Source: Hydrolagus colliei (taxonomy: Eukaryota). Taken from it: DNA of 64,000 bases. The stretch is taken from positions 23,560,001 to 23,624,000 of the forward strand of contig CM068747.1 of NCBI GenBank assembly GCA_035084275.1, in the 5' to 3' direction. Within the stretch, counting starts at the first letter, position 1. Every line of letters starts with the position of its first letter. The notes beneath the pieces were generated by a model. It made no database searches. It was not told where the DNA came from and was given only the letters and a program-made list of their open reading frames with translations. The translations under genes and the position numbers were made by a program. This document shows, in pieces, positions 18,075-43,622 of the stretch.

Positions 18075-18243
18075 ATGGGTGACCCAGAGAACGGAAAGAA
18101 AATATTTGTGCAGAAGTGTACGATGTGCCATACAATTGAAAAAGGTGGAAAGCATTTAGTGGGTCCAAACCTGTCGGGTTTGTTTGGCCGCCAAACTGGG
18201 AAAGCTCCAGGTTACAGTTACAGTGAAGCAAACAAAACTAAAG
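18075..18243 (+). CDS. cyct: Cytochrome c, first coding exon (positional orthologue of testis cytochrome c)
   Basis: Acceptor TTTTTGTCGTGGTAG| 7 nt before the [59 protein letters not shown] with the CXXCH haem motif; 169 nt, donor AAAG|GTACTG. The symbol is inferred from the RBM45-PDE11A synteny. Confidence 0.93.
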
Positions 18244-18312
18244 GTACTGTCATCAGAACAGTGGCTGATACTTGCAGATCAGTTTTAAAAATATTAATCC
18301 TTGGATTGTTTA

Positions 18313-18680
18313 TAACAACAACAACCTACAACAAAATTACACTTGATTAGCGCCTTTCACGTCAGAAGGATGTCCCAAGGCACTGGACAATCACTGCTTC
18401 AGACCCGAGCTGGGGACGGGGATGGGGGTGGTGGGGGTGGGGAAGGGGGCTTGCCGATGGGTCCATCAAAGAGGAGAGTCTTGAGGCGAAATCTGAAGGA
18501 AGACAGGGAGGGGGCGAGGTGGAGGGACTACGGGATGGAGTTTATAGCTGTTATAGCACCGTATCCGGTCTTTGAGACATTTCAAAGCACTTCACAGAAT
18601 ATACTGTAAAGTGAATTGCCTGTATATAGCGTGGGCGAAATGCGGCAGCCAATTGCGCACAGCAGTTTTCCGCAAATTTG
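18313..18680 (-). mobile_element. L2-type tail plus SINE fragment filling the cytochrome c coding intron
   Basis: (CAA)n...GCGCCTTTCACGTCAGAAGGATGTCCCAAGG (L2 tail, reverse), then the SINE core CTTCACAGAATATACTGTAAAGTGAATTG...GCAGCCAATTGCGCACAGCAG. Confidence 0.75.
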
Positions 18681-18738
18681 TTTTTAAATGAATTTTTTTA
18701 AATGTACTCCTGAACTAAAATGTGCATTTATATTGTAG

Positions 18739-38699: not shown

Positions 38700-38975
38700 C
38701 AATATTCTGAGATGTTGATCGAGGTCAACCAGTCTGCCTGTTCAGGTGGATGTTAAAGATCCCATGGCACTAATCGAAAAGCGAATGGAAATTTCTCCCA
38801 GTGTCCTGGCCAACAGCCACCCAAACAAAATAGTCTGTTTTGTGGGTCATTGCTGTGGGCAAGCTGGCTGCGCGTTCATGCACATATACACTCTACTACA
38901 CAGTAAATCCTGTGAAGTGCTTTAGGACGTCCTCCCAAAGCGAAAGGCACTGTAGCAAATGAGAAGAGTATTATT
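38700..38975 (+). mobile_element. Deu-domain SINE (SacSINE1/AmnSINE1-like)
   Basis: CAGGTGGATGTTAAAGATCCCATGGCACTAATCGAA...TTCTCCCAGTGTCCTGGCCAA...CTGTTTTGTGGGTCATTGCTGTG matches the Deu-domain consensus as recalled; another piece lies at 49790-49900(-). Confidence 0.7.
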
Positions 38976-41900
38976 GATAGTAATGGTAATTATTCATTTT
39001 GTATTCACCAATATGTAATCAGTGGGCAACAAATCAAGATGCTACAATTTTTGTGGCAAGCAATGCAGAATGAACAAAGCTTGCTTCACTTTGGACGTAA
39101 CAAACCTAATAAATTACTCTTTGTGAACCCGATGGTTGCAACATTTATTCCGCGACCTTGCTCATTAGATTATCATGGATTTCTTCGACCAATGGAAGGA
39201 CGTTATTAAAGAGCAAGGTTCAGCTACTCTATGGAAAACTGCATGTGCCAGGACTGGTTTGCCAATCAGAATGAAATCTGTTGGTTAATCGATGTTTTTA
39301 TCTGTGCTGTAAAATTTTGGAAAAGATAAATAATCTCAGATGAAAAATCGAATTTGTTTTCATCTGGAAAGCTATGGCTCATTCTCTGCATTTTTACTCA
39401 AATAGTAAGCAGAATTAGCTGGTGAAATGGCTTGTTTTTAACATAATGATGTATTCCTTCACATTTCAAAGCATTCATTGCCGCTGGCACATCTAACACT
39501 AAGCCAAAAGCTGCTGGAAGGAATAACTTCAATTTACATTTCTAACATTCAAATAAACCCCTTAAAATGTAACAAAAATCAAACGGGGGCCAAGGTTGCT
39601 TTATGCCATTTTATAGAGAGATTTTACCAATAGCTCAATTTGTATGTTTTCGTTTCATTCTTTAGCAGAAATGTAGCATTACAAGTTTGCATTAGGAAAT
39701 GTGCACAATGTTGTAAAGATAAGGTCAACTCAAGTAATGCCTCAAATAGGATTTTCGTTTAACGCAAGTACTGTATAAATGTCTTTAATACAAAGAAACA
39801 CCACAATATAACATTTACAGTCCACATTAAATTCTAAGCATCTCATCATAAAATTCCATGTTGATTCCTAAATACAACTACTGCCCTTTAAATGGTTTAA
39901 CACGAAACGTTCCGCACGCAAGTCAAAACCCACGATTGCTCTCAACTGATTTTAACTACCGGTAATTAAAAGAGATTTTATTTAGTAATGTTGGCATAAC
40001 CAATGACTGTATTACTTTATTCTTTGCCAAAGTTGCCTCTGGCAATTGCCACTGCCATTTATCACTGACTGTATGTTAAATAATAAAAAAATAATCTTTG
40101 CAAATGAAGGAGCATCTATAGCCGCAAAGCAGCTCAAAGTGCTCACCTCATCAGGTAGACAATGCATTATCTTAACATCAACAGCTTCTCCAACAAAATA
40201 TACAGTCAATTCACTTTACAGTATGTGCGAAGTGCTTTGAGACGTCCAGAAGACACTTTTCACCTCTTCTAGACGTCTTGAAGTGCGTCACAGAACACAC
40301 TGTAAAGTTTGTGAGTGAAACTCAACAGCCAATTGGGGACAGCAGTATCCCACAAACAGTCGTGGATTGAAATGACCAATCTTATTATTGTGTTTTTTTT
40401 GGGGAGGGATTATTATGTAAATGCAACCATTTGCTACCACTGAACCCAGCGGGTTGACATTGAGGAGGGGAAATGATGAGGCTTGGTTGGCAAAGATCTT
40501 GTTCCTTCCAGGATCTCTGATCAGAAGGTTTGGAGGTGTGTGCACACAAATACTTCCACGTGTTACCTCTTGTTCCAGATTCAACGCAATAGATTTCTTC
40601 CACCCACAAAACAGAATACTAAATACTGTATAATAAAATCACAAGTAAATGTGTGTATTTTTTGAGAGCAAAAACAATATATATCCACTGTGTTGCTTCG
40701 TGCTTCCCTTATTTTGCCACACGGGATTGACAGTGTAGCGGGTTGAACAGCAGATGTTGCCAGCATACTACAGTGCATGTTACCGGTACTTATTTATGCA
40801 CCAATTTAGTAATAATCAGATTAATGGGACTGTTGTTTATCTTAAATGATTGACTGTTGCTTTTTTTAAAAGTTTCTTTCAGCTAACACATCGAAGAGGG
40901 TCTCAAGAGGGTCTTCTGAGGTAACCAAGTAGATGTTTATTTAGAGCGACTTAAATCCTTTCCAACTGCGTTTCACGGCAAAGTTCACAGCTATGTGTGG
41001 GCGACACATTCCCTGAGAATTCGCTCATTAACCAGCCTTTCATCTGGTTAATGAGCCTCCTCTGTCATATCGTCCTTCTCAAAGTTCTTGCTGTGGTATT
41101 ATAATGCAGAGTAATATGTGTTGGGTGTTTTGGGCACTGTAGTGTCTGATAGAAGCAAACAGAATGTGCTATGAGTAGAAGGATTTTTATTTCAGACTGA
41201 GGCAGGGGGACAGTTCTATTCAAACTAAATTTCTGGTAGAAACCAATAAGGAACCAATTCACGCAACATGTTGCCAGCCCAACTAGCACATAATTAGTAA
41301 GATCCCACGAGTATTTGTACAGGCTAGTCTGTTCCAAGACTCATTCAGTTTTCTGGATCATCACCACGAAAAACAAAACAATTAAAATGTGAAACTCTCA
41401 ACTCTCAACGGGTTAAATAGTTAAAGCATGTGCATTCTACCCAAATGAAGGAGAATTGTATCATCTAAACTTTCTCTCATTGACTGTAGTGCAAGTTTGG
41501 AGTTTTGAGGTCTCTGGAATAGAACCTGGCGAGTGCTAAAAGCATTCAGCCTTCAGTTTATGTAAGAATGGAATATCTTTCAGTTGGTTATGTACAACTT
41601 AATTGAAAATAATACAAGTTATTGTACTTAGCTAAACGCCCTTGGAATTTCTACAAGGGTACTTCTGTATATTTGTTCAATCAAAACATTGTATTAGTTT
41701 CAATTTAAATAATTAACACAGAAGTAAAGTTAAATATTACTAAGGTGTACAGTTTGGTATTATAAAATTACCTACGTGTAGTCACTCTACAGTAAATTCC
41801 TGTAAAGCACTTTGACAAGTCCTTCCAATATGAAAGGTGCTGTAATCAAAATGTGAGGATTATTATTATTATTCTTGTATCCTGTATCTGGTTCATCTTT

Positions 41901-43463
41901 AAGGCATGTATTTAATTGAATATCTTAGTTAAAATATGGCTGAATAACACAAAACAATTTACTAAAATTCTAGACAACAAATAAGTACAGGTTATTCCAT
42001 TTATGTGGCACCTTTCACATAGGGTATTAGTTGTGCTTAACAGCAATGGTGCCATCTACCAAACAGGGAAGTGAGCGTTAACAGTTATCTCAGGGTTCTG
42101 CAGGCTAGTGACAAATCAAATAAACTTTCTGAAGAAGCAATTGAAATATTACAATTGCTATCATCTCTTCCACTGTTTCCTATTCTCCATGTAAATACTC
42201 AGACCTACCCCTGGTGGCTCAACAAGTAAAACCACAAGTTATGTATGAAATTCTTCCAGAAAGTGTTAACAGATCTCAGCTGCAGCTCAGCTGGTTTGGG
42301 AGGGAAGCGATGGAACTGTAACCCAGCATGAATTAGCGTCTTCAAGGGAAAATTGTAGGGGACGGAAGACACTTTCTTTTTTTTAAAAAAATCACTCATA
42401 TTTTCATCAAACAAGTCTACATTCGCCTGCCTAGAGAGGGAAAAGTGATAAATTGAACATCCCATGCATTTAACATGAGAAAGGCCACGCATTCTAACTG
42501 CTTTTTACACTAAAGTAGTTAGAGAATCAACAGCAATAACAACTTGCTCTTATACAATGCCCTCCACTCCGGGGGGCTAATCAGAATGCTTAAAATCCAA
42601 CATTACTTTACATATTCATTGGGCATTAGTGGCAGAATCACCAGTGCTAAAGCCACTGCTGATTAGCTGGATATATATATATATATATAATTCATATGGA
42701 ACAATCCTGTTTAAAAATACCGAGTTACTGCACTAAAAGGGCTGCCACTTGCAGGATGGACAATCTGAGGCTACAGCTGTGCAGTACTTTTCCACTCTCC
42801 TGTGACCTGAGTCAGGCAGTGCGTGTGGTTCAAGTACAGATGTGATCGCAACCTTATTGTACCTCACTCTCCAACCAACCCAGCGATAACAACAGCAACA
42901 GCAACTTGCATTTCTACAGTAAGGTTAAACAAGTTTAGTGAATTTGCAAATTTAATAATAATAATAATAATAATTCTTGCATTCGATACAGCGCCTTTTC
43001 ATGTCTTCAGGACGTGCTAAAGCGTTTCACAGAGTATACTGTAAAGTGAGGCGACTGTATATTTTCTAGGCAAAACTCCCGCAATAAGGCTTACTAGATG
43101 TGACGATTCAGCCACTGTGAATACATTCCTTTTTTTTTAAACATCTCTTAATATTTATTGTTAATGGTTAGTAAGGGAGTGAGCATTCCATTCCAGACAC
43201 AGGGAAGTTTCCACGCATGAGTGGACACATGTGGGGAGCTCTCAGGGCTAGTGTATAAAAACTATACTATTAATTATGCAGGATATTACAGATATCATTG
43301 AATGATAACATTTTACTAAATTTGACAGAAGATTACACCTGTTTAGTCTATTGCGATTCTTACCCATTCTGCACATACATTTTGTCACTAACGTGACCGG
43401 ACAATTGCTAAACCCAAACGCCGCCTGAAGTTATAACTCAAGTCTTTGTCTTTTCTTGAGTAG

Positions 43464-43622
43464 GACAGTCGCTTCAAGGACGAAATCGATAAGTTGACGG
43501 GATACAAGACTAAGTCGCTTTTGTGTATGCCGATTCGAAACAGCGATGGTGAAGTCATTGGCGTTGCTCAAGCTATAAACAAAAACCCTGGAAGAGCTCC
43601 ATTCACCGAGGATGATGAAAAG
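43464..43622 (+). CDS. pde11a: PDE11A coding exon 2 (GAF-A, NKFDE motif)
   Basis: [72 protein letters not shown]; 159 nt, phase 0/0. The next exon (VMQMYLPFCG-like) was not found in the window. Confidence 0.96.

Follow-up and report, generated by a model that had tools for sequence, protein, structure and literature searches.

An intact CYCT gene upstream of PDE11A in Hydrolagus colliei, with a second frame that is stop-poor and in phase but lacks a PDE11A3-type start

Introduction

Dual coding of a cytochrome c exon has been published for mammals, with human PDE11A3 being the CYCT exon read in a second frame (PMC3196546). The human isoform 3 protein (NP_001070665.1; P0125 in our set) carries 54 residues ahead of DRRFNDEIDK, an N-terminus that the original prediction for this DNA had given correctly, and we confirm that its start lies in the CYCT exon, in the +1 frame. 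According to PMC13655612, testis and somatic cytochromes c can be told apart by Tyr46 versus Phe46, linkage to the HoxD cluster is a further criterion for CYCT, and the cycs/cyct pair dates back to elephant shark. Here we compare these systems with the region upstream of PDE11A in Hydrolagus colliei, within a stretch of 64,000 nt (GCA_035084275.1, CM068747.1, positions 23,560,001 to 23,624,000) that is called the window throughout.

Organization of the CYCT-PDE11A region

The features of the window discussed below are as follows.

14217..14648, minus strand: first coding stretch of RBM45, with an RRM_1 domain; limits are those of the open frame, not exact exon limits
16910..17014, plus strand: non-coding CYCT exon 1, ending at 17014 and starting approximately at 16910
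18068..18243, plus strand: CYCT exon 2, ending in phase 1 with 1 nt after codons 1-56; ATG at 18075; encodes CxxCH and Tyr46
18076..18243, plus strand: CYCT exon 2 read in the +1 frame, likely untranslated: homology to the PDE11A3 N-terminus, no ATG, one stop
18157..18159, plus strand: TAG in the +1 frame, from the Leu27 codon TTA and the first G of Val28
18739..18887, plus strand: coding part of CYCT exon 3, terminating in TAA TAA, with AATAAA at 18950
30461..31285, plus strand: PDE11A4-type first coding exon, GAF, ending in phase 0 (CAG/GTAAGC); 88% to C. milii P0005
40873..40920, plus strand: 48-nt PDE11A cassette exon, phase 0-0, with AG/GT sites; 76% to P0006
43464..43622, plus strand: shared PDE11A exon in phase 0, encoding GAF-A and 94% to C. 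milii P0004/P0005; its first in-frame Met is at 43527

RBM45, assigned by its top PDB match to RNA-binding protein 45 (E 3e-47; runner-up 5e-14), and CYCT are arranged head-to-head. The donor of CYCT exon 1 reads TGG/GTGAGA, and a 105-nt loose end ahead of 18067 in run X2 looks, by eye, like 16985-17014. Exon 2 is bounded by an acceptor (...GGTAG/GAT) and a donor (AAG/GTACTG), measures 169 nt from its ATG to its end (18075-18243) and encodes a product with 91% identity to C. milii P0223. Between this exon and the shared exon at 43464 lie the PDE11A4-type exon and the 48-nt cassette, both absent from the original prediction; the cassette corresponds to an insert present in shark PDE11A isoforms.

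Judged by Tyr46 and by its adjacency to PDE11A, the cytochrome c gene at 18075 is the CYCT ohnologue or orthologue, and the earlier assignment is thus upheld. Its reading frame is intact, with CxxCH and the axial Met80, and it lies at the PDE11A locus (exons 30461 and 43464); a separate somatic paralogue, CYCS, has both exons present on another contig (G000:C2). As in CYCT elsewhere, the gene stands upstream of PDE11A on the same strand and has Tyr46 where the paralogue has Phe46, the somatic type, and it shares with mouse Cyct (PDB 2aiu) and the primate pseudogene at 2q31 two coding exons split after 169 nt. Unlike known CYCT genes, it carries the chondrichthyan-type residues Pro3, Thr15, Leu27 and Val28, and it is testis-type by sequence only. 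The best PDB match is testis cytochrome c, by a margin of just 0.9 bits over the next. A cytochrome c protein search gave 15 proteins, 2 of them chondrichthyan, and in C. milii the CYC and PDE11A accessions are consecutive (XP_007888256/255).

The +1 frame lacks a start codon and is closed by one stop

We reproduced exactly the +1 translation of the 169-nt exon given in the original prediction, including its single stop (TAG 18157-18159, +1 codon 28) and the lack of any Met. A start of the PDE11A3 (A3) type requires GAT for Asp2 followed by a codon starting with G; the gene has GAC CCA here, and Pro3 therefore rules out the A3 start codon. The exon 1 region (16861-17014) contains no ATG that could feed the +1 frame and supplies in-frame upstream stops instead. 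The exon at 43464 does begin in phase 0, compatible with the +1 frame as had been claimed, yet the match is uninformative, since any upstream exon has one frame running into a phase-0 exon. As evidence of dual coding we rejected it as automatic, the CYCS exon likewise having 169 nt and phase 1.

It had also been proposed that one derived change, K27L, closed a previously open frame. Pro3, which independently forbids an A3 start, occurs directly after Asp2 in 3/3 chondrichthyan CYCT-type proteins seen (the window, P0223 and P0224, including elephant shark and sawshark), and residue 27 is hydrophobic in the same three (Leu, Leu and, in P0224, Met), leaving the proposal unsupported. Because Pro3 is common to elephant shark and sawshark, the Leu27 stop did not single-handedly close a usable frame, and K27L as a species-specific closing event was rejected with Leu also in P0223.

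Comparison of the near-open frame with null models and controls

A +1 stop requires a preceding Leu, Ile, Val or Met codon. This half of cytochrome c offers just 4 such sites, which makes the frame poor in stops by default; the expected number of +1 stops is 1.14, against 1.5-6.2 in 30 PDE11 tiles. Among 20,000 synonymous recodings of this CYCT protein, 26% had no stop and 42% had one under uniform codons (at most one: 68%), with 44% and 41% under local codon counts (at most one: 85%). The +1 frame of CYCS, whose nearest detected PDE11-like exon is 1.49 Mb away, likewise holds a single stop and lacks an ATG. That of an unrelated cytochrome c (L003) begins with Met at the A3 position, has one stop and matches human A3 at 20/54 residues. 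A loose control came from metagenomes, where at most one +1 stop was present in 66 of 74 distinct cytochrome c segments, most of them GC-rich and likely of bacterial origin; the segments were drawn from 80 loci retained out of 219, and none was recognised as vertebrate CYCT.

Identity to the human and two turtle A3 leaders is 20, 22 and 20 of 54 for CYCT and 28/54, 26/54 and 27/54 for CYCS. Recodings reached 15.4 +/- 3.0 identities to human A3 under uniform codons (P 0.09 for the observed 20/54) and 14.6 +/- 2.9 under local counts (P 0.046). We ascribe this marginal excess, tentatively, to common ancestry at third positions, because the excess in CYCS is larger. With CYCS at 28/54, L003 at 20/54 and only that marginal excess over recoding, conservation of the +1 peptide beyond the cytochrome c constraint was not found.

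The locus shares with human PDE11A3 the same exon, +1 frame, acceptor exon and phase, and differs in having no ATG, a TAG at +1 codon 28 and a similarity no greater than that of the controls. Cytochrome c genes in general resemble the PDE11A3 start, which likely accounts for the resemblance here. The original prediction took the locus as either an ancestral state or a secondary loss. A non-dual-coding condition is compatible with our results; the near-open frame as a sign of past dual coding is unsupported, the controls looking the same. By its residues, 'ancestral state' is a fitting term for the trait (no dual coding) but not for the sequence, with its derived Pro3, Thr15, Leu27 and Val28.

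PDE11A3 leaders in other vertebrates

We examined 209 PDE11A proteins, among the cluster members listed (up to 15 per cluster). A3-type N-termini were present in 3 of the 209, human and two turtle models, in a sampling shallow enough to have caught one mammalian A3. The turtle RefSeq models XP_030436001.1 and XP_034641836.1 (P0046 and P0159) carry, ahead of the shared exon, a 54-residue leader from the CYCT +1 frame, with 34/54 and 33/54 identities to human A3. Unlike in the window, their frame is open and has an ATG; both are predictions that may have been projected from the human protein. On these gene models the term mammalian is too narrow for the isoform, and the A3 origin may be amniote. 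No A3-like leader was seen in about 25 chondrichthyan PDE11A proteins (a hand count by source name within this shallow sampling), and none in the fish, lungfish, coelacanth or amphibian proteins among the 209. Three short shark PDE11A isoforms use other leaders, rejected as CYCT-derived with 1-2 identities to A3. When residues 1-54 of the tortoise A3 leader served as the query, the sole match among 4 candidates was the query itself; human A3 went undetected.

Transcript and read evidence

In run X1, from a relative, a 425-nt contig joins CYCT exon 2 to exon 3, and depth suggests that no other contig covers exon 2. X1 shows this junction only, coverage of exon 2 is partial in X2, and X4-X6 have no reads on it; the acceptor exon lies outside the span covered, and rare junctions drop from contigs. 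A DNA contig of run X3, which may be the source sample, spans 17900-18357 with 0 differences. Among 10 of 16 differences listed for X1, none falls at 18156-18159, and the TAG is probably common to this relative.

Discussion

The reading that we favour, and hold to be probable, is that an intact CYCT is followed by PDE11A and that the +1 frame is an untranslated by-product of cytochrome c, being neither a current nor a former PDE11A3 start. The conserved phase-1 intron puts the +1 frame into register with the phase-0 PDE11A exon; splicing would join CYCT exon 2 to exon 3, and PDE11A would start from a first exon of its own. Such a layout would be a ready-made opportunity that amniotes later used (human in print, turtles in gene models only) and chondrichthyans did not. 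Three elasmobranch models (P0175, P0177 and P0180) begin at the internal Met that the shared exon encodes, and we count them against this reading.

Those models bear on an explanation to which we give an outside chance, in which the CYCT promoter drives a chondrichthyan PDE11A transcript (43464 spliced to exon 1 directly or by way of exon 2) that encodes an enzyme of about 604 residues from Met 43527, later lengthened in amniotes through a +1 ATG. Models starting at the internal Met occur in three elasmobranchs (catshark, bamboo shark, skate; 604 aa) and in a turtle, a parrot and a wallaby (609-611 aa), implying non-coding first exons on the 43464 acceptor; CYCT exon 1 is without ATG, and 43527 is the earliest ATG of the shared exon. 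However, internal promoters may account for such models, leaders not derived from CYCT are used by other shark isoforms, and the context of Met 43527 is weak (TGT ATG C). If exon 2 were included, the strong CYCT ATG (AAA ATG G) would open a 65-codon frame with a stop at 43490-43492, for which decay is predicted. It is similarly doubtful that PDE11A has drawn on the CYCT promoter ever since the ancestral gnathostome, with the amniote A3 leader later switched on in a stop-poor frame.

We regard as quite unlikely a secondary loss, in which A3-type dual coding was present in the gnathostome ancestor and disappeared in cartilaginous fish through Pro3 and then the TAG. By gene model the trait extends to at least turtles (P0046, P0159), and the CYC-PDE11 linkage seems to predate the duplication, each ohnologue pair lying on one contig and strand; CYCS Asp-Val would permit the ATG in half of codon choices, and the excess identity to A3, if marginal, points the same way. 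Against this, A3-type leaders number 0 in fish, lungfish, coelacanth and amphibians among the 209 proteins, similarity to A3 does not exceed that of the controls, and further losses or missed annotations would be required in every non-amniote sampled. Dual coding at present, whether through readthrough of the stop, initiation at a non-AUG codon or a TAG that is an assembly error, draws on the single stop and the fitting phase and is very improbable given the lack of an ATG, the same-frame stops upstream in exon 1, the unchanged X3 contig (though perhaps from the source sample), the probable TAG in X1 and a read-through query that found, among 50%-cluster representatives, 2 repeat-protein matches judged spurious.

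On the present evidence the CYCT-PDE11A locus is ordinary, and both the mammalian dual coding (PMC3196546) and how far back the cycs/cyct pair reaches (PMC13655612) have been published. In the literature searched we found no report that the first coding exon of cytochrome c has, by default, a +1 frame poor in stops and in phase, and none of an A3 leader in turtle gene models. A +1 frame with these default properties would explain the ease of overprinting. Were CYCT-led PDE11A transcripts to occur in chondrichthyan testis, the locus would be a good model for the stepwise emergence of a vertebrate dual-coding exon, and its origin would be dated, with the overprint coming after the splice.

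CYCT and PDE11A gene organization

The window (23.56-23.62 Mb of contig C14 in the 1.0 Gb genome) contains an ordinary member of the CYCT, or testis-type cytochrome c, family adjoining PDE11A.

Features of the CYCT-PDE11A region (window coordinates)
14648, - strand: approximate limit of the RBM45 coding stretch nearest CYCT; RBM45 points away from CYCT
17014, + strand: 3' end of CYCT exon 1, non-coding, located by eye via a loose end in sequencing run X2
18068-18243, + strand: CYCT exon 2; ATG at 18075, 169 nt from ATG to exon end
18739-18887, + strand: CYCT exon 3; double stop, AATAAA at 18950
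30461-31285, + strand: PDE11A4-type first exon, 5' of the shared exon
40873-40920, + strand: PDE11A cassette exon, 48 nt, phase 0-0, GAF-A region, 5' of the shared exon
43464-43622, + strand: shared PDE11A exon, phase 0; 94% identity to Callorhinchus milii proteins

The cytochrome c exon has 91% identity to the C. milii protein; together with the 94% of the shared PDE11A exon, this makes a holocephalan the likely source animal. Orthology to CYCT is well supported because residue 46 is Tyr, a testis-type mark according to the available portion of PMC13655612 (a portion in which PDE11A goes unmentioned), and is Phe in the only other cytochrome c match in the genome, the somatic paralogue CYCS on contig C2, with both exons intact. 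RBM45 and CYCT exon 1 are head-to-head with ~2.3 kb between them (14648-16910), and the short CYCT intron 2 contains very high-copy repeat pieces (18310-18700). A long G-rich low-complexity tract 5' of the PDE11A4-type exon (26900-28500) is free of stops in several frames and resembles a simple repeat. The cassette exon matches an insert of shark isoforms (proteins P0003, P0006, P0164, P0170, P0172 and P0176) that was found in sharks only among 209 proteins examined, and is missing from both C. milii PDE11A models seen.

The +1 frame of CYCT exon 2

The original prediction gave correct coordinates for a 169-nt exon with one +1 stop (TAG, 18157-18159) and a phase 0 PDE11A exon at 43464; translated to the exon end, the +1 frame contains no Met. 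The N-terminus given for human PDE11A3 was confirmed by its 54-residue leader in P0125 (NP_001070665.1, PDE11A isoform 3). Calling it mammalian is too narrow for the databases, where two turtle RefSeq models share the leader. According to PMC3196546, Pde11a3 starts in an alternative frame of the exon that encodes testis cytochrome c, and a primate nonsense change in testis cytochrome c is synonymous in the Pde11a3 frame; PMC9434997 locates PDE11A3 in testis. Our search, with most subscription papers outside it, found the overlap only in PMC3196546 and no literature on PDE11A dual coding or overprinting. Because we looked for an ATG, an open frame and excess conservation and found none of them, CYCT exon 2 here is not a PDE11A3-type dual-coding exon.

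Among 209 proteins picked up by the shared-exon motif, a shallow sample in which as many as five snake rows were anchored on the second GAF motif instead, an A3-like leader occurs in three, human and the tortoise and slider turtle models (P0046, XP_030436001.1, and P0159, XP_034641836.1; 34/54 and 33/54 identity to human A3), and in none of the ~25 chondrichthyan proteins counted by hand. Neither turtle model has an isoform number in its name, and both may have been projected from the human protein. An unlikely rival order of events, with a CYCT-led PDE11A transcript translated from the internal Met at 43527 and the +1 leader added later, draws on six PDE11A models, three of them elasmobranch, that begin at the equivalent Met. 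As for transcripts, run X1, presumed to be RNA, has a contig of 425 nt that joins exon 2 to exon 3, such contigs dropping rare forms; no second X1 contig appears on exon 2, and runs X4-X6 have zero reads there. In a hypothetical join of exon 2 to 43464, the CYCT frame would end at a stop (43490-43492) after 65 codons, making the transcript a predicted decay target.

Comparison with chance

A +1 stop requires NTA then a purine, or NTG then A, and therefore arises only after Leu, Ile, Val or Met; CYCT exon 2 has four sites able to give one. The expected number is 1.14, versus 1.5-6.2 for 30 tiles of two PDE11 proteins, and at most one stop occurred in 68% (uniform codons) or 85% (local codon usage, tallied over five nearby exons, among them the two cytochrome c exons) of 20,000 synonymous recodings. 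The CYCS exon, 1.49 Mb from the nearest PDE11-like exon found, matches that of CYCT in length and phase, likewise lacks an ATG and contains a single +1 stop, and its +1 frame is closer to human A3 than that of CYCT (28/54 versus 20/54). In L003, an unrelated cytochrome c from a metagenome, Met occupies the A3 position and identity to A3 is 20/54. At most one +1 stop was present in 66 of 74 distinct metagenome segments, a loose control since most of these are GC-rich and probably bacterial. Counting against chance, the identity of the CYCT +1 frame to A3 slightly exceeds the level in CYCT recodings (P 0.09 with uniform codons, 0.046 with local counts). That of CYCS (L002:1500-1668, - strand) is far above (P ~1e-4), an excess we read as inherited third positions and not selection on a second frame. 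With the recoding null, CYCS and L003 all giving a like picture, the near-open frame is no special sign and does not exceed chance. The closeness of CYCS to human A3 implies strong retention of third positions between these ohnologues.

Missing start and stop codon: probable order

The stop depends on Leu27 (TTA) plus Val28. Leu27-Val28 is also found in C. milii, and the sawshark protein, taken as orthologue from shared residues and not synteny, has Met27-Val28. All three have Asp2-Pro3, and given Pro3 no Asp codon choice yields the A3 start. Because Pro3 is common to the three, the sole other possible +1 ATG (Asn5-Gly6) reads AAC G in the window and CYCT exon 1 supplies no start, the +1 frame likely lacked its start before the stop arose. 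The proposal that a single K27L change closed a usable frame is thus unsupported, Leu27-Val28 being shared with C. milii and Pro3 already barring the A3 start. Run X1, from a relative, differs from the window exon at 16 positions, of which 10 are listed; none of those is at 18156-18159. The listed rows seem to be the ones lying well away from contig ends, which makes it probable that this relative also carries the TAG. Residues unusual for cytochrome c and common to chondrichthyan CYCT-type proteins are Pro3, Thr15, Ile20, a hydrophobic residue 27 and Val28. Lys27 lies on the protein surface and takes part in binding partners, and its loss could change the oxidase or Apaf-1 interaction.

Age of the linkage

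A second PDE11A-like gene (82-95% identity to C. milii P0112) lies on C2, where the loci are at 52.49-52.51 Mb (L084, L088) and 54.00 Mb (L002, L090). Its sharing of contig and strand with CYCS, 1.49 Mb downstream of the latter, suggests that the cytochrome c-PDE11 linkage is older than the genome duplication. The secondary loss hinted at from the +1 frame is not borne out: the layout likely records no lost overprinting. Rather, the CYCT-PDE11A layout explains why overprinting stood open to other lineages.
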